Below are positions 28,653 through 56,253 of a stretch of 56,253 bases of DNA, one piece after another (positions within the stretch are counted from its first letter, which is position 1; each line of letters begins with the position of its first letter). The position numbers were made by a program, and so were the translations under genes. The notes below the pieces were generated by a model. It searched no databases. It was not told the origin of the DNA and saw nothing but the letters and a program-made list of their open reading frames with translations. The stretch is from contig JBDTCF010000026.1 of NCBI GenBank assembly GCA_039923715.1, positions 1 through 56,253 on the forward strand, written 5' to 3'. Source of the DNA: Vulcanimicrobiaceae bacterium (lineage in GTDB: Bacteria; Vulcanimicrobiota; Vulcanimicrobiia; Vulcanimicrobiales; Vulcanimicrobiaceae).

Positions 28653-28798
28653 GGCGCCGCGTCAGCGCGCCTTCCCCGCGGCCGTTGCCCATGCCCTTCC
28701 GAGTCGGGTTTGACAGCGCACCTTCTCCTGCGACCCGTGGCCGACCCGATGCAGGCGGAAACCAAAGCCAATTCAGGGAGGCGCCATCGTTGTCAGGT

Positions 28799-28828
28799 TT
28801 GACAGCGCTTGTCGGCAGCGGGTATGAT
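28799..28828 (+). promoter_or_regulatory. sigma-70-type promoter TTGACA-N18-TATGAT, 7 nt upstream of a GTG (leaderless-type arrangement)
   Basis: A perfect -35 TTGACA (28799-28804), an 18-nt spacer and TATGAT (28823-28828). The GTG of the ATPase reading frame is at 28835, with no room for an SD. Confidence 0.5.
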
Positions 28829-28834
28829 CCGGGC

Positions 28835-30038: not shown

Positions 30039-30059
30039 CTTGCGCTGCCCGGAAGGCAG

Positions 30060-36896: not shown

Positions 36897-36907
36897 TCGT
36901 CAGGCGG

Positions 36908-38724: not shown

Positions 38725-38737
38725 TCGATCGAACGTG

Positions 38738-39388
38738 CTATTGCGCGAGTGATTCGGCCGGCAAAGCATACGACCGCGCGTGCTTTGCTTCGGAGAGACG
38801 GAGTCGCTCGCGTCCGGCAACACGTTCGCCCGGCCGGAGCCGCTCGAAACGTGCGATGGTGTCGGCATCGGCGGCGACAATTCCGACGACGCGCCCACCG
38901 GATTGCTCGATCGTCCGGATCGTCAGCTGGTCTTCGTCGGACGGGGCCCGCCCGATGCGCACCGTTAAGAGGACGCCGTCGACCGAGTGGGCCAGCGCCA
39001 TCGCGGCGTTGCTGCTCAAGAACGTTCCCGCATCGACGATCGTGAAGTCGTACTTGGCGCGCATTTCTTGGACGAACGTCGCGAGGCGATCGCGGCCGAT
39101 GACGCTGCCATCTTCGCGGGACAGTTCGGCCGTCGTACCCTCGCCGACTTCCTTTCCCCGTCCCGTCAGTGAGACGAGAGCTGCGCGGTGGCCAGACTTC
39201 ATGAGGCTGCTGGCCAGCGAATGCGCCGTCAGACTCTTCCCGTCGCCGTCGAGCGCCGAGGTGACCATGACCACGGCGGGCATCTCGAACTCGGCTTCGA
39301 CGCGCGAGCGGAGCAGGTGCACTTGATGGTTCAAGGGGGTCTCGCTCGTTTCGATCCCCTGAAGATCGATGTCAATCGGCTCGTTCAT
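38738..39388 (-). CDS. CpsD/CapB-type (BY-kinase-like) P-loop ATPase, no C-terminal Tyr cluster
   Basis: The start has an ATGA overlap with the Wzz stop. Walker A is in VMVTSALDGDGKS and the Walker B-like motif is DFTIVDAG. The C-terminal 40 aa contain a single Tyr. Confidence 0.8.
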   Translation of the reverse strand: MNEPIDIDLQGIETSETPLNHQVHLLRSRVEAEFEMPAVVMVTSALDGDGKSLTAHSLASSLMKSGHRAALVSLTGRGKEVGEGTTAELSREDGSVIGRDRLATFVQEMRAKYDFTIVDAGTFLSSNAAMALAHSVDGVLLTVRIGRAPSDEDQLTIRTIEQSGGRVVGIVAADADTIARFERLRPGERVAGRERLRLSEAKHARSYALPAESLAQ

Positions 39389-40731
39389 AGATACTTCCCT
39401 AACGTGGCGATCACGGGCTTGCCGTAGAGGCTCTCGATGTGAGCGGCGCGGCGTAGATGAGGGTTGAGTTGGTCGATCAAGAACGCGCACGCAAGCGCAA
39501 GGAGCAGGCTCAGGAGCGCGAAGATCGCGCCAAGGCGAAGTGGCCCGACACCGGCCTGCGCCTCCGAACCGACTGCCCGATTGATGACTACGACGGAACC
39601 GAGCGACAGCGCGTCGCCGCGGTCGAGCAGCGTTGCCGCGCGATGCGCCGCGATCGTTCCGTATTGCGTCATGGCCGCGTCGCGCTCGAGGCGAAGCAGC
39701 GCCAGTGGCGCGGAGCCGTCCAACTGATGGCTACGGCGTACGATCTCACCATCGAGCGCGGCGACCTTCGCGCGATCCCCCGCCACGACGGCCGCGGCCT
39801 TACGTCGCTCGACGACCCCTGCGGCGACGGTCGGACTAAACGCATGCGGCGACGAAAGCGCCCGACTCGCTTGCCGGGATGCCTCGGATTTGAGACTCCG
39901 CACTTTGGCCGCGAGCGCCGGCAATCCGGGATAGCGGGGCGTGAACTGAGCGCGTACGGCCGCAAGCTCCGCCGAGCTGCTCGTCGCCTGTCTGAGCAAA
40001 TCGATGTACAACGGATCCGATTGCAGGATGTCGCGTCGCGCCTGCTCGGAACGGCTACGCCCGTCGACCTCGAGCGCACTCGCCTGGGCCGCGTCCGCCT
40101 GTAGGTCGGCGCTCGCGAGCGCCCGCTGCGTACGCAGCGCATTCACTTGGTCGACCAGGGAGTCTTGGCCCTTGTCGTCGGTCGGCGTCGACCCGGCGCC
40201 GACTCGCGCGTTGAGCTGGACGTTGAGTCGCTCGATACGCCCCTTTTGCTTCACGAGTTCGGAATCGAGCGCGCTCAGGTCGTCGTCGTAGCGCGCCGTC
40301 GAGAGCTGCCTGTAGTACAGCGCCAACTCGTCGGCCACGCCGTTGGCGATGGTTGCGGCTCGCTCGCGGCTGGGGTCCGAGTAGTCAATTCGCATGATGC
40401 CCGATTTGTAGGCCGGCGGTTTCGCGCTGAGGTTTTTCTTCAGCGTGAGTAACGGGACGTCGAGCCCGAGGTGCTTCTCCACGCGGGCAAGGACGCCGGT
40501 GCTCGTCACGAGAGTGGGAAGATCGGGTGACGACAACGTGGGATCGTTGCGCGTGTTGCCATTGACGATCAGGACGTTCGCGCTAGCGCGGTAGATTCGC
40601 GGCATCATCGTAATGAGAGCGACCGATCCGAGCATGAGAACCGCGAACGTCGCTACGACGGGCAGTCGATGCCGCCAGACGATACTACAAGCGTTCTTGA
40701 GGTGGTCGGCCGTAGATTGAACGTGCGTCAT
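39385..40731 (-). CDS. polysaccharide chain-length determinant / co-polymerase (Wzz/GumC family)
   Basis: An N-terminal TM (PVVATFAVLMLGSVALI), a long coiled-coil periplasmic region and a C-terminal TM (LGAIFALLSLLLALACAFLI). The Wzz-type motif is PRIYRASANVLI. Confidence 0.85.
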   Translation of the reverse strand: MTHVQSTADHLKNACSIVWRHRLPVVATFAVLMLGSVALITMMPRIYRASANVLIVNGNTRNDPTLSSPDLPTLVTSTGVLARVEKHLGLDVPLLTLKKNLSAKPPAYKSGIMRIDYSDPSRERAATIANGVADELALYYRQLSTARYDDDLSALDSELVKQKGRIERLNVQLNARVGAGSTPTDDKGQDSLVDQVNALRTQRALASADLQADAAQASALEVDGRSRSEQARRDILQSDPLYIDLLRQATSSSAELAAVRAQFTPRYPGLPALAAKVRSLKSEASRQASRALSSPHAFSPTVAAGVVERRKAAAVVAGDRAKVAALDGEIVRRSHQLDGSAPLALLRLERDAAMTQYGTIAAHRAATLLDRGDALSLGSVVVINRAVGSEAQAGVGPLRLGAIFALLSLLLALACAFLIDQLNPHLRRAAHIESLYGKPVIATLGKYL

Positions 40732-40745
40732 GTGCTTATCCCCGT

Positions 40746-42062
40746 TTACAGTGCTGCAGCGTACGAGAGTCGAGGTTTAGGCGGCATAGCCGTTCGGCCG
40801 ATGCCGCGGTAGGTGAGGCCGGCCGAAGCGACGCGCCGTGCGTCGAGGACGTTGCAGCCGTCGACAACGACGCGCCGGCGCAGAGCGTGCGCGAACGATG
40901 AAGGGTCGATCGCGCTGAACTCGGGCCAATCGGTGAGCACCACAAGAGCGTCGGCGTTGGCGGCCTCGAGCGCCGAGCGAACGAGCCGGCTGCCGGGCGG
41001 AAGGGGCGCGACGTGGACCGCGGGATCGTAGGCGGTCATCGCAGCACCACGGGCGGCAAGCTGATCGATGATGCGTAGCGCCAGCGAGGTTCGGATGTCG
41101 TCCGTGCCCGCCTTGAACGCAAGCCCCCATACCCCGACCCTCGCCCCTTCGAGCGAGCCCAACTCGCGCTCCAGCACCTCGATGACGCGCATCGGCTGGC
41201 GCTCGTTGGCGCGCAACGTCGCTGAAAACAGTTCCCGGCTGGATTCCAGCTCCGTTGCGACGTGACGCATGCTTTTCACGTCTTTTTCGAAGCACGGGCC
41301 GCCAAAGCCGATACCAGGCCTCAAGAACTCCGAGCCGATGCGAGGATCGTAGCCCATCCCGCGCAACACGTCGTCCGAGTTGGCCCCCAACGCATCGCAC
41401 AGATTGGCGACCTCGTTCGCGTAGGTGATTTTCATCGCCAAGAACGCGTTCGAGCAACCCTTGACCAGTTCGGCGTTGCACAGAGACGTGAAGACCACGG
41501 GCCTTTGCAAGGCTTCGAACAGCCGGACGTAAGGTACGGCGATGGAAGCGTTAGGAGCGCCGACGATGATCCGGGCAGGCGCGAGAAAATCGAGCACGGC
41601 CGATCCCTCGCGCAAGAACTCAGGCGCGTAGGCGAGTTCCCCCCAGCCTTCCACGGTGGGCGCGAGGCGGTCGCACGTTCCCGGAGGGACGGTCGAGCGC
41701 ACCACGATCGTCGGCCAGGTCGAGAACCGGACGTTCGAGAGGTCCGCCAAGACGGACTCGAGCGCTCTGAGATCGGCGGACCCATCGTCCTGGGAGGGGG
41801 TCCCCACGGTGACGATCACAATTTCCGAGTCGCGAACGGCTGCTTCCAGCGAATCGAAAAAGTGCATCCGCCCCCGCGCGACATGCTTCTGAAGGGCCTC
41901 CTGAAGACCGGTTTCGCGATAGGGCGGCGAACCCAGACGGAGTCGCGCGATGCGCTCCGCCGCGATGTCGTAACCATGTACCGTCCAACCCAACTCCGCA
42001 AGCCCGATCATGGACGCCATGCCGACATAGCCGGTTCCAATAATGCAAATAGGTGCATCCAC
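40746..42062 (-). CDS. UDP-glucose/GDP-mannose dehydrogenase-family nucleotide-sugar dehydrogenase
   Basis: GTG start (VDAPICIIGTGYVGM, Rossmann motif). The catalytic Cys context is GIGFGGPCFEKDV. The C-terminal UDP-binding domain is present. The upstream 67 codons of the track ORF were rejected. Confidence 0.9.
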   Translation of the reverse strand: MDAPICIIGTGYVGMASMIGLAELGWTVHGYDIAAERIARLRLGSPPYRETGLQEALQKHVARGRMHFFDSLEAAVRDSEIVIVTVGTPSQDDGSADLRALESVLADLSNVRFSTWPTIVVRSTVPPGTCDRLAPTVEGWGELAYAPEFLREGSAVLDFLAPARIIVGAPNASIAVPYVRLFEALQRPVVFTSLCNAELVKGCSNAFLAMKITYANEVANLCDALGANSDDVLRGMGYDPRIGSEFLRPGIGFGGPCFEKDVKSMRHVATELESSRELFSATLRANERQPMRVIEVLERELGSLEGARVGVWGLAFKAGTDDIRTSLALRIIDQLAARGAAMTAYDPAVHVAPLPPGSRLVRSALEAANADALVVLTDWPEFSAIDPSSFAHALRRRVVVDGCNVLDARRVASAGLTYRGIGRTAMPPKPRLSYAAAL

Positions 42063-42064
42063 GC

Positions 42065-42700
42065 TTAGTACGCTCCCCGTTGGAATACGACGGAAAAGAA
42101 CGTCTGCACCAAAAGCGCACCGTCCAGCGCCGGCGACGCCCGTCGAATGTAGTCGATGTCGAGAGCGGTCGCCTCGGGACGATCCAGCGGGATTTGCGAC
42201 CGGCACGTCGCCTGCCAAATACAGGTGATTCCCGGCCGCACCAAGTGTCGCAGATGCTGCCAACGTTGGTAGTCGCCGATGACGAGCGGCATCTCCGGGC
42301 GCGGACCGATAAGCGACATGTCACCGCGCAAGACGTTGAAGAGTTGCGGCAACTCATCGATCGACGTTTTGCGGAGAAAACGGCCCACGTACGTAATCCG
42401 CGGGTCGGCCCCGTGGGTCGGCGAGCGACGATCTTGGCACTCGGTCTTGCGCATCGTGCGGACTTTATAGAGCGTGAACGTCCGCTCGAAGCGGCCGGCA
42501 CGCCGTTGACTGAACAAGGCGGGGCTGCCGTCTTCCAACCAGGTCAACAGGCATGCTGCGGCGATGATCGGCAACGCGAAGAGGAGCAGAATTGCGGCCA
42601 CGCTGACGTCCATCAGGCGCCGCGCGCGTGAGGCGGTCCGGTTGGGCCGGTACACGAGCGCCGCGTTCGCAGCCGGGAGCGTCGCTACTTGAGCAGCCAC
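42065..42700 (-). CDS. undecaprenyl-phosphate sugar-phosphate transferase (bacterial sugar transferase family, initiating enzyme)
   Basis: One TM, then ALFSQRRAGRFERTFTLYKVRTM, IDELPQLFNVLRGDMSLIGPRP, typical of WbaP/EpsL-type C-terminal domains. Confidence 0.9.
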   Translation of the reverse strand: MAAQVATLPAANAALVYRPNRTASRARRLMDVSVAAILLLFALPIIAAACLLTWLEDGSPALFSQRRAGRFERTFTLYKVRTMRKTECQDRRSPTHGADPRITYVGRFLRKTSIDELPQLFNVLRGDMSLIGPRPEMPLVIGDYQRWQHLRHLVRPGITCIWQATCRSQIPLDRPEATALDIDYIRRASPALDGALLVQTFFSVVFQRGAY

Positions 42701-43824
42701 AGCGCCCCGACCCCGCTGAGGATCGTCTGGAATATTCCTTTTGCGTCGACCTTGCGCCCCTCAGGAACAAAGACCACGTCGCCGTCCTTTAACTGCGGAT
42801 TCTGAGAGGTGTCTCCGCGCACGAGGCTACCGACGTCGTACGTCGTCTTCGTGTCGTTGCCGAGCACCTGTACCTTGGCCAGATCGGCCCACTTCGTCGG
42901 ACCTCCGGCGGCGTACAGTGCGCTCAGGAGCGAGAAGTTGGTCTTGAGCGTCACGGCGCCCGGTTTGTCGACGAGCCCGGCTACGACGATGCGCGGCGCT
43001 GCGGGGACGGTTACGGCATCACTCGGCTCGGCGGGTTGTTGGAAGACCGGATCGCCAAGCGCGACGAGTTGGATGGTGCCGCCGCGCACTAGCGCGATGT
43101 GCGAGGTCGCGGCCGAAATCGAGAGGCCGCCAACCTGCGTGAACGCGTCGGAGAGCGCTTCGTCGCTCCAGAGATATGCGCTCCCGGGCGTTCTGACTTC
43201 ACCGCTAACGCGCACCGCAATCGGCTTGTCGACGAGCACGACGGTGTCGCCGGGATGCAGCGTCGGCCCGCTGCCGCCGCCGGCCGAGAGCGCGGTAAGA
43301 TCGAAGGTCCCAAGCGTCTTGCCGTCGCGCATGACGCCGACGCGCCGCAGATCGATCCGGGAGGTCATGGTGGCGCCCAGTTGGGTGTCGGCGCGCACCG
43401 CGCCGTCGCTCGAAGCACTCGCGTCGCGACCGTTCACGGGCAAGTCGGCGAGCGCCGAGGCGAGGGTTTCACCGGGCTGAAACTTCAGAATTCCGCCCGG
43501 TCCACCCGAAACGAAAATTCTATCCGGCTGCGCTTTCAGTTGAACGTCGACCGCCGGCTTGATGACATAGCGCGCGAGCGCCACTCGGACGCGCTCGGCC
43601 ACTTGTTGCGTATCTAAGCCGTGAACGTCGACGGTCCCGGCCAAAGGCAACGAAATGCGCTCGGCGGCATTGACGCTGAACGGCCCGGTCAACTCGGGAT
43701 GGCCGTACACCGTCACGAAAAGTTGATCTCCTGCGTGAATCGCGGGCGTCGCTGCGATTGCCGCTGAAGCAAAAAGTAGCGCACTCGCCACGAGCAGTGA
43801 CCGTAAAATCGCTTGGATTCGCAA
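42685..43824 (-). CDS. polysaccharide export protein (Wza-like: Poly_export + SLBB domains)
   Basis: Signal peptide MRIQAILRSLLVASALLFASAAIA. A Poly_export-like segment is GDQLFVTVYGHPELTGPFSVNAAERISLPLAGTVDVHGL. There are repeated SLBB-like units and a hydrophobic C-terminal helix. Confidence 0.85.
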   Translation of the reverse strand: MRIQAILRSLLVASALLFASAAIAATPAIHAGDQLFVTVYGHPELTGPFSVNAAERISLPLAGTVDVHGLDTQQVAERVRVALARYVIKPAVDVQLKAQPDRIFVSGGPGGILKFQPGETLASALADLPVNGRDASASSDGAVRADTQLGATMTSRIDLRRVGVMRDGKTLGTFDLTALSAGGGSGPTLHPGDTVVLVDKPIAVRVSGEVRTPGSAYLWSDEALSDAFTQVGGLSISAATSHIALVRGGTIQLVALGDPVFQQPAEPSDAVTVPAAPRIVVAGLVDKPGAVTLKTNFSLLSALYAAGGPTKWADLAKVQVLGNDTKTTYDVGSLVRGDTSQNPQLKDGDVVFVPEGRKVDAKGIFQTILSGVGALWLLK

Positions 43825-43952: not shown

Positions 43953-45104
43953 TCAGTGTGTGAGGATTTCGTCGCTCGTCGGCCGGACGCCAAGCGCGCG
44001 AGCGGGAACGGGCGCCCGAGAAGCGGCGCCGCGGATCGCAGGACCAGGTCCGGCTCGGGTCGTGAGCGCGTGCGCTGCCGCGAAATACGCTCGCAGATAC
44101 AACCGCGCCGATTCTTCCAACGATAAACGCTCGCCAACGTACCGGCGGGGCGCGTAGCTACCTAAGTTGTTCAAGAACTGGTCGAGAGCGGGGACGAACT
44201 CTGCCGGTCTAGCGAAACGTTCGCCGCACGCCTCTGAAAAATACGGAACGGACGTCGCTTTGACGGGATTTATTCCCCAACGTTCCCGATTGGGGTCTAA
44301 CCAAAGACCTGGGTCCCAGGCCAAAATTGGTAGATCGCTGGCCATGGCCTCCTGGTAGGCCATACCCTGAGTCTCGTGCTCGCAGAGAAAAAGCATTGAG
44401 CGGCTGCGGCGTAGCAGCGCGCGGTATTCGGCATGCGTATAACGGCCGTACCGTACCAGTTCAAAACGAAGTGAGCGTCGTGTCAATTCCCCCAGGACGG
44501 GTTTGAGGAGATCCGGGACGAGGCTGCTGCGGTTCCAGCGGATTTTATCGTAGACGAGCACGTCAACGTCCTTGATCAAGTGCTTGGTCTGGGGCCATTG
44601 CCCTAAATCGATCCCGCCGAACCAAGGCCGCAAGACGTCCGAATCGTACACCGTTGCGAACTCATCTCGCATCCAGTCACACAAGGTAAGGTAGGAGTGA
44701 AAGTGGGGGCGGTCCATCAAGGTTGGGTTCTGCTTGGGGTGATCGTAGAGCCCCGGGCCAAGAACGGCCGGGTTCGTGAGATTCCAAGCATCAAGGATGT
44801 GCGGGTAGCCGCAAACTCCGACTGGATAGTCGGGATGGCGCCGGGCTAAGCCATAGTTATTCACGTGGACCGTTTGGTTTGAGCGCCTCAGCGCTCGGCA
44901 GAGGAGCAGAAACGACATCTCGAAGCCGGAAACACGCGACTTGTGCGGGCGGAAGGGCGCCGCTACTTTGCGCAAGCCACGTCGAAGTCGACGATCGCCG
45001 ATCATGAACGTATCACGATCGCGGTCCTCAAAAAAAAGGAGAACGTCGCGACCGAGTAAGAGTCCCGCACGCCGCTTTTTGTCCACGCTAGCCCTTCGAT
45101 TCAC
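43953..45104 (-). CDS. glycosyltransferase, GT-B (GT1/GT4-like)
   Basis: The GTG start has a GTGA overlap with the upstream stop. LFLCEHETQGMAYQEAMASDLPILAW matches the E-x7-E region of GT4 enzymes. GC is lower than in the flanks. Confidence 0.7.
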   Translation of the reverse strand: MNRRASVDKKRRAGLLLGRDVLLFFEDRDRDTFMIGDRRLRRGLRKVAAPFRPHKSRVSGFEMSFLLLCRALRRSNQTVHVNNYGLARRHPDYPVGVCGYPHILDAWNLTNPAVLGPGLYDHPKQNPTLMDRPHFHSYLTLCDWMRDEFATVYDSDVLRPWFGGIDLGQWPQTKHLIKDVDVLVYDKIRWNRSSLVPDLLKPVLGELTRRSLRFELVRYGRYTHAEYRALLRRSRSMLFLCEHETQGMAYQEAMASDLPILAWDPGLWLDPNRERWGINPVKATSVPYFSEACGERFARPAEFVPALDQFLNNLGSYAPRRYVGERLSLEESARLYLRAYFAAAHALTTRAGPGPAIRGAASRAPVPARALGVRPTSDEILTH

Positions 45105-45985
45105 GAGCTAGCGGCGAGACGCATGGCGAGCTGCGTCGCCGCCTCGGTGACTTCAGGCGAAGTTCCGGTATAGCCGGCGATCGAGAACGCGACGTCTTCT
45201 GCGCGCATGGACCGCGTGAATTCTTCGACTTTCGATTTCGAGAGCGGTCCCGGGCCCCAATACGTGTGACACCAGGAACGCTCGTCGGTCCACACGCCCG
45301 CCGCCTCAGCTCCAATCACCTTATCGACGTAGAGTCCATACACGAGCTGCTCGCCGACCGAACGCGCACGGGTGAATGCCACGTGCCATGGTCGTCCGGT
45401 GATCCGCTCGATCCGCTCGAGCGCTCCTAGAACAATCTCGCGATCCCAGCTGATGACGTTTCCGACGTAGTCGTCCATCGGCAGCTCGTCCGCCTTGACG
45501 CCCAAAAGCCGGCAGACGTTGCGGTGCCACTTGACGTGCGGCATCCCCGCCCTCACCCCGCCAGGCAGGCGGTACATTCTCGTGCGTCCGTCACGGACAA
45601 ATAACGCCCGATCGACGCGGCGTACGAAGCGCACGTCAGAATCGACGTTGACCAGGAGAGATTCCTTTGCGAGGGTCGGCGCACTCAGCTTGACGATTTG
45701 CTGAACGAGCCAACCCTTCGCCGGCACCATTGCCGGCATTGCAAACCACCACTTCTTAGAGAATCGAAGCTTGACGTAGCCCTTCGGAATGACGTCTTCG
45801 ACTGCGACGACGACGGTCCGACTGTTCTGAAGTCCTTGAAAGAGCTTCAGGTCGCAGGCGTCGACGATGATGTAGTGCTTCGCTTCGGGGGTCGCAAATG
45901 TAAGGATGCTTTCATTGAGGTCCCGACACGACTCGAGATCTCGTGAAAAACTCGGCGTGATAAAGGCGATGCCTTGTTCGTTCAA
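45101..45985 (-). CDS. hypothetical protein, possibly a nucleotide-diphospho-sugar transferase-like (GT-A-like) enzyme
   Basis: The TTG start lies 8 nt after GGAG and 22 nt after the NRPS stop. IAFITPSFSRD and a DxD-like VDSD are present. GC is lower than in the flanks. I am not confident of the family. Confidence 0.6.
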   Translation of the reverse strand: MNEQGIAFITPSFSRDLESCRDLNESILTFATPEAKHYIIVDACDLKLFQGLQNSRTVVVAVEDVIPKGYVKLRFSKKWWFAMPAMVPAKGWLVQQIVKLSAPTLAKESLLVNVDSDVRFVRRVDRALFVRDGRTRMYRLPGGVRAGMPHVKWHRNVCRLLGVKADELPMDDYVGNVISWDREIVLGALERIERITGRPWHVAFTRARSVGEQLVYGLYVDKVIGAEAAGVWTDERSWCHTYWGPGPLSKSKVEEFTRSMRAEDVAFSIAGYTGTSPEVTEAATQLAMRLAASS

Positions 45986-46007
45986 AGGAATGACTCCACT
46001 ATCTCCT

Positions 46008-49000
46008 TTAGGCTCCTAGCACGGTGCGGAGGGTGCTAGCGAGCTCCTCGATGCGCTCGTGTACGGCCCCGACGTGCCCGCCGCGCATGGACACGAGGTC
46101 GACGCGTTTGGCTACGGCGCCCCAACCCATGGTCGGGTCGTCAAACATCGTGGTCTGATCTTCGCCCCAGAGAAGCGTTACGGCACCGTCGTAGATCTTC
46201 GGATGGTAGGTAAATGCGGCGACGAGATGCGCGAATGAGCTTTCGGTTTCTCGCGCGCCGCGCCGCTTCTCGAAGGGTTGCGGTTCTTGCACGCCCGCGG
46301 GGCGGTGCGAGCGATTCGCGAGCGAGCGAAGGGCGCGCCAAGCCGCGGGAAGCCCGGCGAACGGACCACTCACGGCCGCGGCGTGAAGCCGAGCGAGGTT
46401 ATAGCAGAAGCGGTCGCGCAGTCGTGGGTTCAGACGCGCGTCTCGACCAAAGCGTCGGATGACTGCGTCGAAGAAAGCGATCTTCTTGCTTGGCATCGGC
46501 GAAGAATTCATCAGAACGAGGGCTTCGACGGTCTCGCCGTCGGAGCGCAAGATGCGGGCGAGTTCGAATGCGACCAGGCCACTCGCGCAGAAACCGCCGA
46601 GACGGTATGGTCCGCGCGGCTGCACGCTGCGAATCCGGGCTGCGTAGTCGGTTGCCATGTCTTCGATCGTCGGCAGCAAGGGTAAACCGGCGGTCGCGTG
46701 CGGTGCGACGGCGTACATTGGTTGATCGGGACCGAGCGCGGTTCCCAGTCGGTGAGCGTAGAGACCCTCGGCGAAGAGATCCCCGTGGAAGAAGAACAAG
46801 GGCGGACGAGAACCGGACCCGTTCAACGTCACGATCGGAACTGCAGCCGTTGCGCGGCCATCGGAGAACGCGTCGATCGTGGCCGAAATCGCGGCAATCG
46901 TTGGCTGCTCGAGCAGCGGGCGAAGACGTAACTCGACGCCCCACTCTTGCTGCACTTGTGCGGCAAGGCGCACGGCGAGCAACGAGTGAAACCCGAGCGC
47001 GAAGATGTCAACGTCGCGATCGATCCGCTCGAGGCCGAGCAGCCGCCCGAGAATCTCGGCAAGGCGCGCCTCCGTCGGGGAGGGCTCAGCGCGGGGCTCC
47101 GCGGCCCCTTGACGAGTGGGATGAGGCAACGCGGAGCGGTCGAGTTTCCCGCTCGAAAGCCGCGGAAGCGTGGGCAGCAGCACGATCGCGGAGGGGATCA
47201 TGAACGCCGGAAGACGCGCGCCGAGCCAGACCCGCAGTTCGTCGACCGTAAGCCCCTCGCGGTCCGCGGTCCGTGGCACGACGTACGCCCAAATCGCTTT
47301 GTCGCCCGACGGCTCGGTCCCAACGATCGTTCGTGCGTCCGCGACGCCGGGGTGGTTCGACAGCACCGCTTCGATTTCGCTCGGTTCGATCCGAAAGCCG
47401 CGGATCTTCACTTGGTCGTCGAGTCGGCCAAGAAATTCCAGGTTCCCATCGGCATGCTGCCGGACGCGATCTCCCGTTCGGTACAACCGTGCGCCGGGAT
47501 CGTCCGAGAAGGGATCGCGGACGAAGCGCTCCGCCGTCAAGCCGGGCAGATTGACGTAGCCGAGCGAGAGTCCGTCGCCGCCCACGCACAGTTCGCCGAC
47601 CATGCCGAGCGATACCGGCTGCAGTTTCGCGTCGAGCACGTATGCGCTAGAGTTGGCGATCGGCCGTCCGATCGGCACACTGTGGCCGATGGCATCCGGC
47701 GACGGAATGACGTAGGCACAACTGAAGGTCGTGTTCTCCGTCGGGCCGTAGCCGTTGATCAAACGGCAATTCGGATATTCTTCCACGAAACGTCTCGCGT
47801 GGAGCGGCGAGACAACGTCGCCGCCGACGAGCAGGCGCCGCACGCTACCGAACGATTGGAAACCTCGTTCGACGGCCTCGCGGAAGACCGCGGCGGCAAG
47901 CCAGAGCGTCGTTACGCTGAAGCCCGCGACCGCTCGGTCAAGCTCCGCTAACGTCAGGATCCCGGGCGGGGCGACGGCCAAGCGTCCGCCGTTCAGCAGA
48001 GCCGCCCAAAGCTCGAACGTCGAGGCGTCGAACGCGAGCGGAGCGTACTGCAGGACGATGTCGTCGGCGCCGAGATTCACGTAGTTCGTGTGGCGCACGA
48101 GACGGGCTATCGCGCGATGCACGACCGTCACGCCTTTCGGGCTGCCCGTCGATCCGGACGTGTACATCACGTAAGCCGGGGCATCCGGCCCGCCAACCTC
48201 GTCCAGGGCGTCGTCGCGTTGAGCGCCGATCGAAGCGGACGCCTCGGCGAGATCGACGATGGTAGCGCCATCTTTTGGCAAGCGATTGAGCGACGTGCGC
48301 TCTGTGAGGATCAGGCTTACGCCCGCGTCCGCGACGATGAACCCGATGCGTTCCCGCGGGAACTCGGGTGCGAGCGGAACGTAGGACGCGCCCGCTTTGA
48401 GAATACCGAGTAGCACGACCGGAACGTCGGGCGAGCGCTCGAGTGCGACGCCAACCGCGGATTGCGGGCCGATGCCAAGGCCGCGTAAATAGCGGGCGAG
48501 CTGATTCGAGCGCCGGTCTAGCTCCGCGTACGTCAGCGTGGCGGCTTCGGCGCTGACCGCGATCGCCTGCGGAGTGCGCGCAACTTGACGCCCGAATATC
48601 CGCTGGACGCTCAGGCCGCGTTCGTACGCGCTCGACTCGCCCGCGCCGAGGGTTATGACGAGTCGCCGCTCGTCCTCACCCATAAGCGATAGCTCCGAGA
48701 GTGGGCTGTGCGGCGCACGAACCACCGAATCCAGCAGCGTCAGAAAATGGTCGAGCATCCGCTCGACGGTCTCGAGCCGATAGAGGTCGGTATTGAACTC
48801 GCACGACACGCGCCAGCCTTCAGGGCGTTCGACCATGAAGAAATTCAGATCGCAAATTGGGCCGGCGGAACGTGACGGAAGGTCGACGAGTTTGAAGCTG
48901 CCATACGTGGCGTTCTGAATGAACGAGCGCTGGTAAACGAAGTTGACCGAAAACAACGCGTTGCGACTCAAATCGCGCTTGGGGTTGACGATCGCTACGA

Positions 49001-50018
49001 GATCCTCGAGCGGGACGTGGCGCTGTTCCAGCGCGTCGGTGACGGAGTCGCGTGCCCGAACGAGCAGGTCGCTAAAGGGCGGATCGCCCTCTACGTCCGT
49101 GCGTAACGCGACCGTGTTGACGAAGGTCCCGACGAGTTGCTCGAAATCGACCTCTTCGCGGCCCGCAACTTGTGTCCCTAACACGATGTCGGTAGCGCCT
49201 GAATAGCGATGAAGGAGCACGAGCAGCGCCGCGTATGCAGTCATGAAGAGCGTACAGTTGTTCGCTCGAGCCAGCTCCGCCAAACCGCCGGAGAGGCGAC
49301 GTTCGAGCAACCGGGAGACGATGTCCCCGTTCGCAGTCTGGATCGGTGGCCGTGGCTTATCGGGAACGATCTCGAAACGCTCGAATCCCTGTAGCATCTT
49401 GCCGACATCACTATCGAACTCCGTCGACGACAGCGACTCCTGTTCCCAGGCCGTGTAGTCGACGTAGGTTGCGGTGAGTTCGGGCAGCGCAGGCGGCCGG
49501 CCGGCGGCGAGGTCGGCGCAGACCTGTCCCATCTCGCGGGCGAGGACCCCGACCGACCACCCGTCGCAGACCGCATGGTGCGCGGTCACCAAGAGCGTCG
49601 AAATACGCGGCCGTACACGAACGTGCGTGACCCGAACGAGCGGCGCGGTGGCCACGTCGAACGTGCGCTGCGCTTCGAGCAGGGCGACCCGATCCGCCTC
49701 GGCGTACGCTTCGTGCTCCGGCAGCGTCGTCAAGTCGATGAGGGGGATGTGAAACGCGACGACCGTCTCGACGACTTGCTGCGGCTCGCCCGCGACGGTC
49801 GTGAAGCGCGTCCGTAGAGGTTGATGGCGTGCGATGATGATATCCCACGCCTGCTCGAGCCGCGCGTGCGGGACGTCGCCTTCGAGACGCCAGCGTACCG
49901 CAACGTTGAGCCCGGGATTGTCGGGATGGAGCTGCGACTCAAACCAAAAGCGCTTTTGCGACTGAGAGCACGGTAACGACGGCGCGTACGGCTCGTCGCG
50001 CACAGGACTGGAGGTCAT
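46008..50018 (-). CDS. non-ribosomal peptide synthetase, C-A-T-TE (terminal module, Val-like specificity by eye)
   Basis: HHAVCDGWS (C); YVMYTSGSTGSPKGV, NGYGPTENTTF, YRTGDRVR and GRLDDQVKIRGFRIE (A); FALGFHSLL (PCP); LFFFHGD...GGFCASGLVAFE...GGH (TE). The ATGA overlap ties it to the upstream synthetase. Confidence 0.97.
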   Translation of the reverse strand: MTSSPVRDEPYAPSLPCSQSQKRFWFESQLHPDNPGLNVAVRWRLEGDVPHARLEQAWDIIIARHQPLRTRFTTVAGEPQQVVETVVAFHIPLIDLTTLPEHEAYAEADRVALLEAQRTFDVATAPLVRVTHVRVRPRISTLLVTAHHAVCDGWSVGVLAREMGQVCADLAAGRPPALPELTATYVDYTAWEQESLSSTEFDSDVGKMLQGFERFEIVPDKPRPPIQTANGDIVSRLLERRLSGGLAELARANNCTLFMTAYAALLVLLHRYSGATDIVLGTQVAGREEVDFEQLVGTFVNTVALRTDVEGDPPFSDLLVRARDSVTDALEQRHVPLEDLVAIVNPKRDLSRNALFSVNFVYQRSFIQNATYGSFKLVDLPSRSAGPICDLNFFMVERPEGWRVSCEFNTDLYRLETVERMLDHFLTLLDSVVRAPHSPLSELSLMGEDERRLVITLGAGESSAYERGLSVQRIFGRQVARTPQAIAVSAEAATLTYAELDRRSNQLARYLRGLGIGPQSAVGVALERSPDVPVVLLGILKAGASYVPLAPEFPRERIGFIVADAGVSLILTERTSLNRLPKDGATIVDLAEASASIGAQRDDALDEVGGPDAPAYVMYTSGSTGSPKGVTVVHRAIARLVRHTNYVNLGADDIVLQYAPLAFDASTFELWAALLNGGRLAVAPPGILTLAELDRAVAGFSVTTLWLAAAVFREAVERGFQSFGSVRRLLVGGDVVSPLHARRFVEEYPNCRLINGYGPTENTTFSCAYVIPSPDAIGHSVPIGRPIANSSAYVLDAKLQPVSLGMVGELCVGGDGLSLGYVNLPGLTAERFVRDPFSDDPGARLYRTGDRVRQHADGNLEFLGRLDDQVKIRGFRIEPSEIEAVLSNHPGVADARTIVGTEPSGDKAIWAYVVPRTADREGLTVDELRVWLGARLPAFMIPSAIVLLPTLPRLSSGKLDRSALPHPTRQGAAEPRAEPSPTEARLAEILGRLLGLERIDRDVDIFALGFHSLLAVRLAAQVQQEWGVELRLRPLLEQPTIAAISATIDAFSDGRATAAVPIVTLNGSGSRPPLFFFHGDLFAEGLYAHRLGTALGPDQPMYAVAPHATAGLPLLPTIEDMATDYAARIRSVQPRGPYRLGGFCASGLVAFELARILRSDGETVEALVLMNSSPMPSKKIAFFDAVIRRFGRDARLNPRLRDRFCYNLARLHAAAVSGPFAGLPAAWRALRSLANRSHRPAGVQEPQPFEKRRGARETESSFAHLVAAFTYHPKIYDGAVTLLWGEDQTTMFDDPTMGWGAVAKRVDLVSMRGGHVGAVHERIEELASTLRTVLGA
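46011..46810 (-). other. domain: type-I thioesterase with Cys at the nucleophile position
   Basis: PLFFFHGD, PYRLGGFCASGLVAFELA (TGC codon at 46587-46589 where the GxSxG Ser is expected) and MRGGHVG near the C-terminus. Confidence 0.8.
46880..47080 (-). other. domain: peptidyl carrier protein (module 2)
   Basis: IFALGFHSLLAV, with the Ser codon at 46983-46985. Confidence 0.85.
47120..48600 (-). other. domain: adenylation (module 2; hand-read code D-A-F-W-L-G-G-T-F, Val code)
   Basis: FDASTFE, TTLWLA, LLVGGD, NGYGPTENTTF, YRTGDRVR and GKLDR. Confidence 0.8.
48700..49970 (-). other. domain: condensation (module 2)
   Basis: SQSQKRFWFESQL, HHAVCDGWS, and downstream motifs to SCEFNTDLY. Confidence 0.85.
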
Positions 50019-53000
50019 GGTGACCTCTGTTCGGCGGCTCGGCGCAGGCCGGCACGTTCGGGTTGCTGCGTGGGCCGCAAGCGCGCGACCGAAGCGGACG
50101 GGACGTCCGAGCGCCGTTTATCCGATGTTCGGGCCAACTCGTCGAGGCGCAGCGCCAATGCGGCGATCGTCGGGTGCCGCAGCAGTTCTTTGGCAGCGAG
50201 ACGAAGGCCGGCCCGGTTCGCCCGTGCCGTGATTTGGAAGAGCTGGATCGAATCGCCGCCGAGCGCGAAGAAGTCGTCGTCGAGTCCGACGCGTTCGAGG
50301 TGGAGAACATCGGCCCAGACCCGCGCGAGTAACAGTTCCGTTGGCGTGACCGCGGCCCGAAAGCGGTCGCTGTCAGCCGTCGGTTCCGGCGCTGGTAGCA
50401 AGCTGCGGTCGACTTTTCCGGCGACCGAAAGCGGCATGCGCTCCAGCTTGGTCCAGACCGATGGAATCATGAAGTCCGGAAGGTGCGCCGCCGCGAGCGC
50501 CCGCAGCTCTGCCGGTGTGCGACCAGGTTCCTCACGGTCGACATAGTAGGCCGCCAGCCGGGGCTCGCCCCCTCGATCCTCACGCAGTACGACCGCGACT
50601 TCGGCCAGCCCGCCTTCTTTTTGAACGACCGTTTCAATTTCGGCCAGTTCGATCCTGAAACCGCGAAGTTTCACTTGACGGTCGAGGCGACCTAAAATCT
50701 GCACGCGTCCATCGCGCGCGATTCGCGCGCGGTCTCCAGTACGGTACATACGGCCGTTACCAAACGGATTGGCGACAAACTTCTCGGCGCTGAGCTGCGC
50801 TCGGTTCACGTAGCCGCGTGCGACCCCGTCCCCGGCGACGTTCAGATGACCCGGAGCGCCGATCGGTACCGGGCGATCGCGGCGATCGAGAACGTAGAAC
50901 TGCGTGTTCGCTATCGGCGTCCCGACGGCAATCGGCTCGTCGCCGATTTCGATCTTTCCGCACGACGACCAAATCGTCGTCTCGGTCGGGCCGTAGACGT
51001 TCCAGAGGGTCCCGCCGCCGGCGAGCAGCCGGTTCGCAAGCTCGCGCGTGAGCGTTTCGCCGCCGCAGATCATTGTGAACCCCGCATGCGACTGAAAGCC
51101 GGCAGCGAGCAGCAGCTGCCAGAGCGCCGGAGTGGCCTGCATCGCCGTCGCTCCGAGGGCTCGCGCGCGCCGTGCGAGGGCGAACGCATCGGAAGTCTCT
51201 TCGCGGGATGCGATCGCGACGGTCGCACCGACGACCAGCGGCAGGAACAACTCGAGCGCGGCGATGTCGAACGAAACGGTCGTCACGGCCAGCAGAAGGT
51301 CGTCCCTACCAAAACCGGGCGTCCGCGACATTGACGTCAGCAGGTTAACGACCGAGCGGTGCGCGATCTCGACCCCTTTCGGCTCGCCGGTCGAGCCGGA
51401 GGTGTAGATGACGTAGGCCGCGTCGTCGCCCGACCGAGCGACGGCAGGCGCCTGCGAAGATGCAGCGCCAAGCGCTTGGGCGGCTTCACTCACGTCGATC
51501 CGTTCGACTGTGCCGGACGCGATCGCGGCGTCGGCCGTGCCGTCGTCGATGAGCGCGGCGACGCCGGCATCGTCGAGGATACGGCGTAGCCGCGCGACCG
51601 GATGGGCGGTGTCGAGCGGCAGGTAACTACACCCGGCGGCGAGTGTTGCCAGCATGGCGACCAGAAGGTTGGGCGTGCGGTCGACGCAGATCGCAATGCG
51701 CCGGCCGGCCCCGACGCGCTCGAGCAGGTGGTTCGCCATCTGATTGACGCGTCGTTCCAAAGCGGCAAACGTCAGCGTCTCGTCGCCGAAACGCACGGCG
51801 ACGGCATCCGGGTTGGCCGCGGCGCTCGCGCGGAACAGCTCGTGCACCGTCTGCGCGACCGGATAGGCGGCGGCGGTGGCGTTGAGGCCCGCGAGCAGTT
51901 GACGCTCGTCGTCCGGAAGGAAATCAACGCCGGCCACGGGCTGCGAGGCGTCCTGGCCGATTCGTTCGAGGAGCGTACGGAAGTAGCCGAGCCACCGCTC
52001 GATCGTTGAGGCGTCGAAAAGATCGGCGTTGTAGTCGCAATCGAGGCGCAGGCCGTCACGCGACTCGACGACGTTGAGAAAGAGATCGAAGTTTACGAAT
52101 GCCTTCGGATTCGGCTCGACCCGCGCTTGCAGGGGGCCAAAGTCCAAGTCTTCGGCCAGGCGTTCCAGATTGAATTGAATCTCCGCAATTGGGACGCGGT
52201 TGTTCTCGCGCTGCACGGCTAAGCTGCGAACGAGGGTGCCGAGCGTGTATTCTTGGTGCTCGTACGCGTCGATGACTTGATGCTTGAGGCTGGATAAGAG
52301 GTCGCGAAGCGTGGTCTCGGACGTTCGCCGAGCGCGGATCGGCAAGAAATCCACGCAGTGGCCGACGAGCGTATCGCCGCCGAGGAGCGCCTGTCCGGCG
52401 GCCGGCACGCCGACGACGACGTCGTCCCGATCGGCAAGGCGTCCGACGAGCACGTCGAACGCCGCCAGCAGCGTCACGAACAGCGTACAACCGTGTCGCG
52501 CGCCCGCTTGTTTGATCGCGCGGGAAGCGTCGTGGCCGACGAATGCGGTCCGGGTCGCTCCCCGGTACGTCCTCGTCGCCGGTCGCGGCCGGTCCGTCGG
52601 TAGGTCGAGGACCGTCGGCAGATCTTCGAACTGCGCGAGCCAATAGGACTCGACCTTAGCACGCTCCTCGGGATCGCGCGCGGCTTGGCGGCGCGCGTAG
52701 TCCGCGAACGCAAGCGCTTCGGGCAACTGCGGCTCCTGCTGCTTGGAAAGCGCGGAATAGGTTTGCGCCAGTTCGGAGAGGATCACGTTCATCGACCACC
52801 CGTCGCAGACGATGTGGTGCGCCGTGAAGACGAAGGCGTGTTCGTCGAGGGTGAGCCGAACCAGGTGTCCGCGCACGAGCGGCCCGTTGCTTAGGTCGAA
52901 CGCAGTTCGAGCATCCTCGGCGACGATCGCGCAGAAGTCCGCCTCCCGTTGGGAGGTCGAACCGCCGGAAAGATCCGTCCGTGGATACGCGCGCGGGCTG

Positions 53001-56000
53001 GGGGACGCGAAGTGCATCATTTCGCCGGTCGTGCCGAAAGCGGCGCGCAAGGCATCGTGTCGGGCGATGACACGTTCCCACGCGGTCTGAAATGAGGACT
53101 CATCGAGCGATCCGCGCAGACGGAGCGTAACCGACTCGTTGAAGGCGCACGAGGCGTCGTCGCCAACCTGCGCCGAAAGCCAAATCTCGGTTTGTTCCTC
53201 CGTCAGCGCGACCGAGGCGAGGTCCGTCCGCGGAACGATTACCGGAAGGGCCGGCGCTCGCGCAACGAACACGCCGGCGCTCTGCAACTCGTCGAGGCTC
53301 TCCGAAAAAGCGGCCACGATCGCGTCGACATCGGCATCGTCGTGCTCGGTGCCCAAGAAACTCGGGAAGCCTTCCTGCACGTAGATGCCGCGCAGGCGGA
53401 GGTGATAGTAGAGCAGGCTCGCGAGGCGGTCCTCGGTAGCGAAGTTCAGATAAAAGAGGCTGCCGTAGGTTTCGATGCGCGAGACGATGCCGCGTCGTTC
53501 GAGCTGTGCGTTGAGGCGTTCGACGAGTCCGGCGGTGCGGCGTCCAAGCGCGACTTGGAGTTTCGGTCCCTCGGCTTTTACCCGCTGCAGCACGGCGAGC
53601 ACGGCCGCCATGGCAAGAGGGTGGCGCACGAACGTACCGGCGATGAACGTCGGCGCGACTTGTGGGAAGGAATCGTCTCCGTATTGCCACGCGCCGCCAT
53701 CGAGCGCGTCCATGAACCGGGCCTTCCCGGCGAGAATGCCGATCGGAAGACCGCCGCCGACGACTTTGCCGTAGGTCGCGAGGTCGGCCTTGATGCCGAA
53801 GATCGCCTGCATGCCGCCCGGATGCATGCGAAACCCCGTGACGACCTCGTCGAAAACGAGCGCGGCGCCAGAAGCTTCGGTGATCCGACGCAATTCGAGC
53901 AGAAAGTCTTTTGGCGCGAGCCCGGGATGCCGGCTTTGGACCGACTCGACGACCACGGCCGCCAGCTCGTCCCGGTGTTCGCGCACCCAGACCAAACTCT
54001 CATCGGCTCCGTACGGCAGGACCGTAATGTTCGCGACGGCCTCGGCGGGAATGCCGAGCGCAACGGGGAGCGAGCGATTCGACGTTCGTGAGCCCTTCAC
54101 GAGGACTTCATCGAACTGCCCGTGATACGCCCCTTCGAAGATGACGACGCGGTCTCGGTTGGTCACCGTCCGCGCGACGCGCAGGGCCGCCATTACGGCC
54201 TCGGAGCCGGTGTTGCAGAAGGTGATTCGCTCGTTGCCGGTCAGTTCACAAAAGAGTTCCGCCGCTTCGCCGGCGAGCTGGGTCTGCGGCCCGATCGCAA
54301 ATCCGGTGCGTAGCTGTTCGGAAACGGCGTCGACGACGAAGTCGGGTACGTGTCCGAACGCCGTCTGACCGAAACCGTTGAGCAAGTCGAGGTACTCGTT
54401 GCCGTCGGCATCCCAGATGCGCGACCCCTTCGCACGCACGCAGGTGATCGGATAAACCATCTCCTTCCACTCGCTGCGGAATCCGGCGGCGACGCGGGGA
54501 TCGGCCAGCACCTTGCGGTAGCGCTGGGTCAAGCGCTTCGATTCGCCCGTGCGAGCGACGGTGCGCGCGACAAGATCGTCGATGTGCTCGCGTTGCGCGG
54601 GCGTAACGTCTGCTTTTTGCGCCCCGGCGATGCCGAATGCTTCGGCCGGCGAAGCGGCCGCGGGCCGGCAAGCCTCCACCGCGGGAGCCGCCGGTTCTAG
54701 CGTCGGCGCAGCACGTTCGAGCGCCGGCGCAGCGGACTCGATCCCGAACGCCTTGAGCGTTTGTAACTGCTCGCGCAGCAGGCCCTGCAGCGCCTGCAGT
54801 TGCTCGCGCATCAGGCCTTCAACCGCCTCCGGAAGCGGCGCGGACGCGAGGGGTGCGCGCGGCGGAATTCGCGAGCCGGTTTCGGTGGAAACCGCTTCCG
54901 TCACCGGGCGGGCCGGCATCCGAGCGGCAAGGTGGTCCGCCAGCGCAACGATCGTGGGGAGGTCGCTAAGAAGTTGCCGAAAGCTCGCGCTGACGCCAAA
55001 ACGCAACTGGACTTGCTGGACGAAGCGGCCGAGAAACAACGAGTCGAATCCGAGTTCGAGAAAGGTCGCACGCGGATCCGCATCGGCGAGCCGCTCTCCC
55101 GAGAGTTCCTCCAGCAGCGCGAGCAGTTCGGTACGCGCGCGCGCCGAGGCCGCGGTGGTTTCCACGTGACCGGATTCAACGTCATGATGGTGCATGCTCT
55201 CCGTCCGCGGCGGTGCCGCTACGCTCGAATTGGGTTCGAGCCAGTGGCGTGTGCGCTCGAATGGATACGTCGGGAGGGAAACGCGCGAGCGGACCGTACC
55301 GCGCGCAAGCGCGTCCCAGTCGGGCGTCGCACCGGCGATCCACAAGCGACCCAGCGTCTCGAGCAACCCCTCGAAATCGCCGATCTCGCGCTCGCTGCCG
55401 GGCAACGTGCGAAGGACAATCGCGTCGCCGTTCTTGGCGGCGCCTTGTAACGCGAACGTCGAGAGCGTTGCGCCCGGTCCCACTTCGAGCAGCACATTCA
55501 CGCCGCCGTCCACGAGCGTCTGCAAAGCGTCCGCAAATCGAACCGGGACGCGACAGTGCCGCGCCCAATAGTCCGCACTGGTCGCTTCCGCGTCTTCGAT
55601 CCACGTACCGGTCACTCCCGATACGTACGGTAGCGAGGGTGGCGAGAGTAGCTTCCCCGCGACGCGTCGCGAGAGCGGCGCGAGCACCGGCTCCATCATT
55701 GCCGAATGGAACGCATGCGACGCGTGCAACCGTCGCGAGCTGACGCCCGTTGCGGCGAGGCGCAGCTCCATTTCTTCGATGGCGTCCAGCGTTCCCGAGA
55801 CGACGGCTAGTCGTGGCGCGTTGAGCGCGGCGATGTCTAGGTTGCGCTCCAGCAGCCTGCCGAGCTCGGATTCGCCGGCCCGCACGACCAGCATTGCGCC
55901 TGCCGGGAGGTCCTGCATCAGACGGCCTCGCTCGGCGACGAGCGTAAGCGCGTCTTCGAGCGAGAATACGCCGGCCAAACACGCAGCGACAAATTCCCCG

Positions 56001-56253
56001 ACACTGTGTCCGACGACGGCGGCCGGCTCGATGCCGTAGTCTTGCAATACTTTCGCCAAGGCGTACTCAACGGCGAACAGCGCCGGCTGCGCGATCCGGG
56101 TCGCCGTCAAATCGGCCGCCTGGTCGCCGGCAAACAGCAGCGTGCGCAGGTCTCGCCCGAGCAGCGGCTGCAGGATATCGGCGCAAGCATCGAAGCACGT
56201 TCGAAACGTCGTAGCGCGCTCGTAAAGGCCACGTCCCATCCCGAGGTACTGTG
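50015..56253 (-). CDS. hybrid PKS/NRPS, 5'-truncated by the window: AT-ACP-aminotransferase-C-A-T
   Basis: The frame is open to the window edge ([11 protein letters not shown] is the start of an AT domain). GHSVGE/HAFHS, LGFDSL, a class-III aminotransferase block, [24 protein letters not shown]...[15 protein letters not shown] and LGGDSIQ are present. Confidence 0.97.
   Translation of the reverse strand, partial: [2078 protein letters not shown]
50130..50340 (-). other. domain: peptidyl carrier protein (module 1)
   Basis: [14 protein letters not shown], with the Ser codon at 50249-50251. Confidence 0.85.
50390..51870 (-). other. domain: adenylation (module 1; hand-read code D-I-L-Q-I-G-V-I-W, Gly-like)
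   Basis: [40 protein letters not shown] and GKVDR. Positions were assigned by aligning to the GrsA numbering from memory. Confidence 0.8.
51960..53215 (-). other. domain: condensation (module 1)
   Basis: [22 protein letters not shown], and downstream C-domain motifs up to [10 protein letters not shown]. Confidence 0.85.
53280..54610 (-). other. domain: class-III (glutamate-1-semialdehyde aminomutase-like) aminotransferase embedded in the synthetase
   Basis: [55 protein letters not shown] and the PLP-lysine context [14 protein letters not shown]. Confidence 0.85.
54920..55150 (-). other. domain: acyl carrier protein
   Basis: [14 protein letters not shown], with the phosphopantetheine Ser codon at 55040-55042. 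Confidence 0.85.
55241..56253 (-). other. domain: acyltransferase (malonyl-type by the HAFH motif)
   Basis: GMGRGLYE, the active site GHSVGE (Ser codon 56003-56005), SHAFHS and the post-AT linker [11 protein letters not shown]. Confidence 0.9.

Follow-up and report, generated by a model that had tools for sequence, protein, structure and literature searches.

Why does the thioesterase (TE) that ends an NRPS (non-ribosomal peptide synthetase) carry a cysteine in place of its catalytic serine, when the chain that it is predicted to release gives no evident use for one? The question is raised by a 56,253-nucleotide stretch of DNA from a Vulcanimicrobiaceae bacterium (contig JBDTCF010000026.1), analysed here at its full length and referred to as the window, in which the last NRPS gene encodes such a domain. 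Cys-type TEs are already a known kind of enzyme; what is new here is the occurrence in an uncultured phylum, together with a predicted substrate that does not explain the cysteine. Based on alignments, structural modelling and comparisons to homologous loci, we propose that the domain is a functional Cys-type type-I TE and that it hands the chain to a nucleophile other than water. We give this explanation, taken as a whole, an even chance. The gene concerned, its condensation (C), adenylation (A), thiolation (T) and TE domains and the residues on which the argument turns are as follows.

46008..50018, minus strand: terminal NRPS gene, C-A-T-TE, 1336 residues (open reading frame (ORF) translation, Pfam domains)
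Residues 15-452 of the 1336-residue protein: Condensation domain (Pfam)
Residues 477-958: A domain (Pfam AMP-binding 477-821 and AMP-binding_C 881-958)
Residues 985-1048: PP-binding (T) domain, directly before the TE (Pfam)
46983..46985, minus strand: Ser1012 of the T domain (LGFHSL), phosphopantetheine attachment site (Pfam PP-binding match)
46011..46835, minus strand: type-I TE of alpha/beta-hydrolase type, residues ~1062-1336 (PF00975, AlphaFold2 model, Foldseek)
46587..46589, minus strand: Cys1144 (TE position 91), codon TGC, nucleophile in GGFCASG (alignment, conservation)
46506..46508, minus strand: Asn1171 (TE position 118), codon AAT, at the canonical acid site, position I (LVLMNSS; alignment, topology)
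46158..46160, minus strand: Asp1287 (TE position 234), codon GAT, candidate acid at position II (topology, conservation)
46074..46076, minus strand: His1315 (TE position 262), codon CAC, catalytic His in a GGH motif (aligned to GDH of AB3403)

The first-pass annotation of this DNA had placed the domain among the type-I TEs, which is borne out by its alignment with solved members of that type and by the comparison with PF00975 that the annotation had suggested. The profile matches with 62.8 bits (curated cut-off 26.4), C-terminal to the carrier domain of a protein that has an intact reading frame and an HHxxxDG motif in its C domain. At the nucleophile elbow, where PYRLGGFCASGLVAFELA is found, the annotation had read TGC at 46587-46589, i.e. 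Cys for the catalytic Ser, with Ser in place of the Gly that usually follows, and both readings of GGFCASG stand. In HMMER alignments to solved TEs, Cys1144 corresponds to the catalytic Ser of the skyllamycin-type TE 7crn (LLGWSLGS) and to the Cys of AB3403 (4zxh, GGWCFGG), so that the profile alignment does not place a Ser elsewhere at the elbow, the outcome that would have overturned the first reading. The Ser two residues after the nucleophile occupies a column that is divided in the close family between Gly (25) and Ser (22). A structural model, likewise proposed at the first pass, was obtained with AlphaFold2 (AF2) for the last 283 residues of the C-A-T-TE protein from a 64-sequence alignment. 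It is confident (predicted local distance difference test, pLDDT, 91.3; predicted template modelling score, pTM, 0.91) and sets the Cys (Cys91 in TE numbering) between strand 85-90 and helix 92-106, in a classical nucleophile elbow.

Cys1144 is inherited from the clade, and is neither an error nor a private substitution. The TGC codon is kept in nine close homologous TE copies, representing seven distinct sequences from six distinct loci (two copies in L001, an identical protein in L002, L003 and L004, and one copy each in L005, L007, L014 and L047), and the same motif occurs in a 99%-identical fragment from another metagenome sample. Within a close family of 49 relatives with at least 42% identity, the nucleophile is Cys in 45 of the 46 that could be counted at this column; more distant relatives of the Ser type encode their Ser by TCN. 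HMMER, run index-free against 1.84 billion representative proteins, gave 28,627 matches at E<=1e-3, 173 of these at E<=1e-30, and among the best 150 of the 28,627 representatives the aligned nucleophile is Cys in 137 and Ser in nine. Because 137 of the 150 nearest representatives carry Cys, the TE is, judged by its alignments, part of a large and almost uncharacterised Cys-dominated clade, of which AB3403 is the sole solved member. The earlier description of Cys-type TEs as rare is hence right for characterised enzymes, Cys accounting for about 2% of known (characterised or catalogued) TEs (PMC13288461), and wrong for this clade.

The catalytic His follows strand 250-258 in the model (His262 in TE numbering) and is present in 43 of 44 close relatives. 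For the third member of the triad, two residues come into question. The nucleophile helix is followed by a strand, and in most type-I TEs the Asp that completes the triad stands immediately behind that strand (position I). This site is occupied here by Asn1171, which lies directly after strand 111-117, aligns with the Asp of AB3403, NocB and 7crn, and is conserved as Asn in 41 of 47 close relatives. Based on topology and conservation, either Asn1171 would serve, in a Cys-His-Asn triad, or Asp1287, in a Cys-His-Asp triad with the acid at position II. The former arrangement is comparable to papain. As to the latter, Asp1287 follows strand 223-232 of the model at a distance of two residues and precedes the His by 28, an acid being present at TE column 233/234 in 37 of 45 close relatives. 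ObiF1 and SulM combine a non-acid at position I with an Asp after the next strand, position II, located 30 residues before the His (PMC6668435, PMC11298585). Cys-type TE sequences having Asn or Ser at the acid site are known from earlier work, and MacB-TE tolerates the D116S substitution (PMC13288461). Inside the Cys-dominated clade, a conserved sub-family combines Cys and His with Asn, and it lends itself naturally to testing which parts of the classical triad a Cys-type TE requires.

Outside the window, many T-TE proteins of about 375 residues were seen among the matches (P0024-P0068, one of them named as from an Acidobacteriaceae metagenome-assembled genome, MAG). They have GGYCMGGT at the nucleophile and Asp at position I, but read LPVYPAGM in the place expected for the catalytic His, and could represent a His-less family of Cys-type TEs or a misalignment.

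What the enzyme would act on can be predicted from the adenylation domains and from the gene upstream.

50015..56253, cut by the window end, minus strand: hybrid polyketide synthase (PKS)/NRPS gene, acyltransferase (AT)-acyl carrier protein (ACP)-aminotransferase (AMT)-C-A-T (Pfam)

The stop of this gene overlaps the start of the TE gene by four bases, its frame is open to base 56253, the listed ORF start being an internal ATG, and its aminotransferase belongs to class III (Pfam). In an uncut homologue of 65% identity from an Eremiobacterota MAG (L005), the order is an A-T loading protein, a phosphopantetheinyl transferase (PPTase), ketosynthase (KS)-AT-ACP-AMT-C-A-T, C-A-T-TE and DUF6492; as the window ends inside the gene, L005 alone shows the KS and, upstream, the gene for A-T loading. 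Aligned to GrsA-PheA, the A domain of the upstream protein has the specificity code DILQIGVIWK, which is Gly-like, and the last A domain DAFWLGGTFK, which is Val-like; both assignments presuppose that the GrsA sequence and numbering and the code tables used are correct. The upstream gene is thus predicted to make a beta-amino acyl starter and to add a Gly-like residue, and the TE to receive beta-aminoacyl-Gly-Val. Such use of beta-amino fatty acids is known from microginins, iturins and puwainaphycins (PMC12250027, PMC4219810). The first-pass annotation had likewise expected a C-terminal Val and, with it, no obvious beta-lactone or beta-lactam chemistry, and the Val-like code agrees on both counts.

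We propose that release proceeds as follows. The T domain would deliver the short beta-aminoacyl-Gly-Val chain on the phosphopantetheine arm of Ser1012. Cys1144, with His1315 as the base, would then take over the chain by transthioesterification, yielding a thioester acyl-enzyme rather than an oxoester, and this thioester would be resolved by a nucleophile other than water. The published chemistry is in agreement with such a sequence. An acyl-thioester is far more reactive than an oxoester towards amines, not towards water, and the characterised Cys-type TEs exploit nucleophiles of several kinds: the TEs of polymyxin and macolacin (MacB-TE) form ordinary macrolactams through a diaminobutyrate (Dab) side chain, the bulbiferamide TE (BulbE-TE) acylates an indole nitrogen, ObiF forms a beta-lactone and SulM a beta-lactam (PMC13288461, PMC11792885, PMC11536411, PMC11298585). 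The account given at the first pass, in which the characterised examples were confined to strained four-membered rings, was therefore incomplete, as it lacked the polymyxin, macolacin and bulbiferamide enzymes (PMC13288461, PMC11792885, PMC11536411). When Ser replaces the Cys in BulbE, MacB, ObiF or SulM, the outcome moves in the direction of hydrolysis (PMC11536411, PMC11792885, PMC13288461, PMC11298585).

A non-water nucleophile is favoured here because all biochemically characterised Cys-type TEs behave in this way, because relatives with T-TE or A-T-TE architecture and no C domain would make hydrolysis futile, and because the TE gene and a glycosyltransferase-like gene adjoin closely, and do so in several loci. 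The last two arguments derive from the genes downstream and from their counterparts in other genomes.

45101..45985, minus strand: DUF6492 gene, GT-A glycosyltransferase fold (Pfam PF20102, AF2 model, Foldseek)
43953..45104, minus strand: gene for a 383-residue protein, its start overlapping the DUF6492 stop by four bases
32210..43824, minus strand: co-directional Wzx/Wzy-type exopolysaccharide cluster (Pfam, NCBIfam)

The DUF6492 gene starts 22 bp after the TE stop. Its product was modelled in a GT-A fold (pLDDT 95.9, AF2), for which Foldseek returns as closest structures the exopolysaccharide phosphotransferase CpsY, the N-acetylglucosamine-1-phosphotransferase GNPT, GT6 enzymes and glycogenin; among the conserved columns, D115 and S116 are invariant and D117 is nearly so. 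From the model, the protein is probably a nucleotide-sugar-dependent transferase. Distant homologues lie inside Wzx/Wzy exopolysaccharide clusters that have no NRPS, which argues for a polysaccharide-type enzyme. We found no mention of DUF6492 in the literature. The 383-residue protein that follows has a weak, sub-threshold match of GT-B type (Glycos_transf_1, E=0.02, residues 221-265) and no sequence match in the PDB. The exopolysaccharide cluster encodes a Wza-like exporter, a UDP-glucose dehydrogenase, a chain-length determinant, an epimerase, a flippase, two GT2 glycosyltransferases and a Wzy-like polymerase. A scan of 38500-46200 for promoters and terminators gave no promoter-like sites, and only weak terminator-like sites within coding sequence.

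The order NRPS-TE then DUF6492 recurs in L001, L005, L007 and L047, giving five loci with the window; in these four, the remaining exopolysaccharide cluster is not adjacent. In L001 (10001-13374) the Cys-type TEs stand in tandem, the C-A-T-TE being followed by an 898-residue A-T-TE protein without a C domain, the TE of which is 64% identical to that of the window, and then by DUF6492; the contig comes from a frameshift-prone long-read assembly. A free-standing T-TE protein of 405 residues, again without a C domain and with a TE 51% identical to the window's, is found at L002 5591-6808, L003 10001-11218 and L004 1462-2679, divergent from an exopolysaccharide cluster in which identity to the window's genes is 47-64%. 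In its vicinity, AMP-binding and PP-binding domains are encoded by separate genes, and there is one gene each for Acyl_transf_3 and PMT_2. Protein lengths of the TE matches are not readable as domain architectures, and A-T-TE is supported in L001 only: P0085, for which its length had suggested A-T-TE, was rejected as a contig-truncated C-A-T-TE. The more distant Cys-type TEs P0022, P0021 and P0018 have NRPS or PPTase neighbours, with no consistent theme.

Two resolving nucleophiles, both already put forward in the first-pass annotation, would fit both the published chemistry of Cys-type TEs and this gene context, as judged by analogy. The first is an external amine or hydroxyl, e.g. of a sugar provided by the adjacent glycosyltransferase and exopolysaccharide genes, which we put forward tentatively as a possible outcome. 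A glycosyltransferase would find no hydroxyl to modify on the predicted chain; a bond between the chain's carboxyl and a sugar, made via the TE, would be chemically natural, and Pks13-TE, which releases its acyl chain onto the sugar trehalose, would be a precedent (PMC9210659). More specifically, the TE may be a lipopeptidyl transferase and neither a releasing hydrolase nor a cyclase: from its active-site thioester it would pass beta-aminoacyl-Gly-Val to a sugar or lipid-linked glycan, at an amino or a hydroxyl group, the acceptor being made by the adjacent DUF6492, GT-B-like and Wzx/Wzy genes; the free-standing T-TE homologue would then have an equivalent role for a simpler acyl group. We regard this specific form as rather unlikely. 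The second nucleophile is the chain's own beta-amine, attack by which would give a strained 10-membered lactam or, if the enzyme acts iteratively, a cyclodimer, following the logic of iturins; this is doubtful. All these weights are subjective, and the share not assigned to any outcome discussed here falls to others.

Several points speak against release to a non-water nucleophile, or against the catalytic apparatus that it presumes. The microginin lines, closest in architecture, release linear peptides by hydrolysis (PMC12250027). AB3403 is structurally solved and functionally uncharacterised (PMC13288461, PMC11792885, PMC11536411, PMC11298585), and since it also has an Asp aligned with Asp1287 and yet uses the Asp at position I (PMC11298585), an acid in the Asp1287 column is not diagnostic. 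Among the 150 representatives, those lacking Asp at position I show only a marginal enrichment of acids at position II (odds ratio 2.3, Fisher p=0.053). MacB-TE D116N is poorly active (PMC13288461), so that the competence of Asn in this place is not obvious. Two TE homologues, in L069 and L070, are without a DUF6492 neighbour, and all linked loci appear to come from related Eremiobacterota-like genomes, in which shared ancestry could explain the synteny.

Plain hydrolysis is the main alternative. In that case, beta-aminoacyl-Gly-Val would leave as a linear, microginin-like lipotripeptide, the Cys would be a heritage of the clade without a special chemical role, and DUF6492 and the exopolysaccharide genes would be mere neighbours or act on something else. 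The layout of fatty acyl-AMP ligase (FAAL)/PKS-aminotransferase-NRPS-TE is that of microginin synthetases, whose products are linear and in some cases three residues long (PMC12250027). Since thioesters are hydrolysed about as fast as oxoesters (PMC11536411), a Cys is compatible with hydrolysis, and the Cys is clade-wide regardless of the assembly line. The DUF6492 homologues in NRPS-free clusters and the two loci without a DUF6492 neighbour point the same way. Opposed to this are the non-water nucleophile in every biochemically characterised Cys-type TE, the Cys-to-Ser exchanges, which favour hydrolysis or product breakdown or sharply lower cyclisation (PMC13288461, PMC11792885, PMC11298585), the futility of hydrolysis in family members without a C domain, and the TE-DUF6492 junction kept in five loci. 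Hydrolysis is in our estimate a possible outcome that falls well short of probable.

Strained-ring release of the ObiF1/SulM type, in which the Cys and a position-II Asp would close a beta-lactone or beta-lactam on the C-terminal residue, fares much worse. Its attraction lies in the Cys nucleophile itself, in the non-acidic position I (Asn here, Gly in ObiF1) and in the spacing of Asp1287 to the His, 28 residues as compared to 30 in ObiF1 and SulM (PMC6668435, PMC11298585). The last A domain is Val-like, however, and the last residue therefore has no beta-nucleophile, which largely refutes this chemistry. The Gln-Cys-Asn motif of SulM (PMC11298585) is absent, Phe-Cys-Ala being present instead, and neither a beta-hydroxylase nor a sulfotransferase gene was seen in the family annotation of the cluster proteins. 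ObiF1 and SulM, chosen as comparators at the first pass, are also not the closest relatives. Against PDB sequences, the family profile finds AB3403 best (7.6e-71), then 7crn, EntF, Pks13, NocB and animal fatty acid synthase (FAS) TEs, whereas ObiF1 (6n8e) reaches merely 1.4e-19 and SulM-TE is not among the PDB matches listed. The top Foldseek matches of the TE model are NocB-TE, AB3403 (second), Pks13-TE, FAS-TE, 7crn and EntF, and the first 50 include neither ObiF1 nor SulM. Adaptation to the formation of a beta-lactone or beta-lactam does not account for the Cys, and ring closure of this kind is very improbable. Least credible of all is an artefact or a dead domain, i.e. TGC as a sequencing or assembly error for TCC, one base away, or a decayed, non-catalytic remnant, of which the Pfam match to the N-terminal half of the TE only could be a sign, given that TGC recurs in the nine homologous copies from independent assemblies and in the fragment from another sample, that Cys, His and Asn are conserved among the 49 relatives, that the model is a full-length alpha/beta-hydrolase and that the frame is intact.

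Further observations concern the surroundings. At 5872-8435 of the window (minus strand), 38 kb from the TE, are genes for a flavin N-monooxygenase-like and an ATP-grasp protein, and the same pair, at 41-59% identity, is found within a few kb of a TE homologue in the Eremiobacterota-like loci L047 (18325-20662) and L069 (1407-3781); these may be tailoring enzymes of the same pathway or reflect conserved synteny only. Inside the exopolysaccharide cluster, a 307-residue protein (36908-37831, minus strand) matches HprK-related kinase A only weakly, at a score that falls well short of the cut-off (TIGR04352, E=5e-6); L002 and L003 have the protein too, with 47% identity, in their homologous exopolysaccharide clusters. 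The ORFs at 29791..30510 and 28381..29394 (minus strand) translate into Arg/Pro-rich, low-complexity sequences without family matches and are probably not genes, the DNA being GC-rich.

Cys-type TEs are wanted as biocatalysts, as the thioester intermediate permits difficult ring closures and acylations, and very few have been studied. The present locus shows that they form a large conserved clade in uncultured soil bacteria. Of greater interest than the single domain are the size of this Cys-dominated clade, the conserved Cys/His/Asn sub-family and the recurrent association with polysaccharide genes. A functional link to the glycosyltransferase and exopolysaccharide genes, should it exist, would point to a route for joining a non-ribosomal lipopeptide to a sugar polymer, for which we know of no earlier description. 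Should the TE act as a transferase, Eremiobacterota would make an exopolysaccharide that is anchored or decorated by a lipopeptide.

Comparison to known systems places the TE between several of them. AB3403 (ABBFA_003403 of Acinetobacter baumannii, 4zxh/4zxi) is likewise a single-module C-A-T-TE protein, of about 1320 residues, with a Cys nucleophile (GGWCFGG). Its gene context, which we take to be an acyl-CoA ligase/dehydrogenase/ACP cluster, presumably differs. Identity to the window TE is about 20% over the Foldseek alignment, and AB3403 has Asp at position I (PMC11298585), unlike the Asn1171 found here.

The TEs of polymyxin (PMB-TE), macolacin and bulbiferamide share with the window TE a Cys on the canonical type-I fold, and in these enzymes the acyl-thioester is resolved by a nitrogen nucleophile. 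The closest structures reported for BulbE-TE are Pks13-TE and NocB-TE (PMC11792885), which are also neighbours of the TE described here. As compared from published descriptions, all three differ in having Asp at position I, and their peptides carry a side-chain amine or an indole, whereas the sole internal nucleophile of the chain predicted here is the beta-amine. ObiF1-TE and SulM-TE resemble the window TE in the Cys nucleophile, in having no acid at position I and in an Asp, in the window TE the candidate for position II by predicted topology, that stands behind the next strand and about 28-30 residues ahead of the His. The relation in sequence and structure is much weaker, however, the C-terminal residue here has no beta-nucleophile, and both the Gln-Cys-Asn motif and a fused MbtH-like domain are missing.

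Pks13-TE of Mycobacterium tuberculosis is a top structural neighbour (Foldseek) and the best NCBIfam match of the window TE; in contrast to the latter, it is part of a PKS, not of an NRPS. It presumably uses a Ser, with Asp at position I.

At the level of the assembly line, the closest parallels are the FAAL-PKS-aminotransferase-NRPS systems of microginin and of iturin and puwainaphycin, in which AT-ACP-AMT-C-A-T likewise makes a beta-amino fatty acyl starter (PMC12250027, PMC4219810). The line in the window differs from these in having two NRPS modules only and in belonging to a different phylum, and directly downstream of it lie glycosyltransferase and exopolysaccharide genes. Its chain would, moreover, be released by a Cys-type TE, where the microginin- and iturin-type lines presumably employ a Ser.

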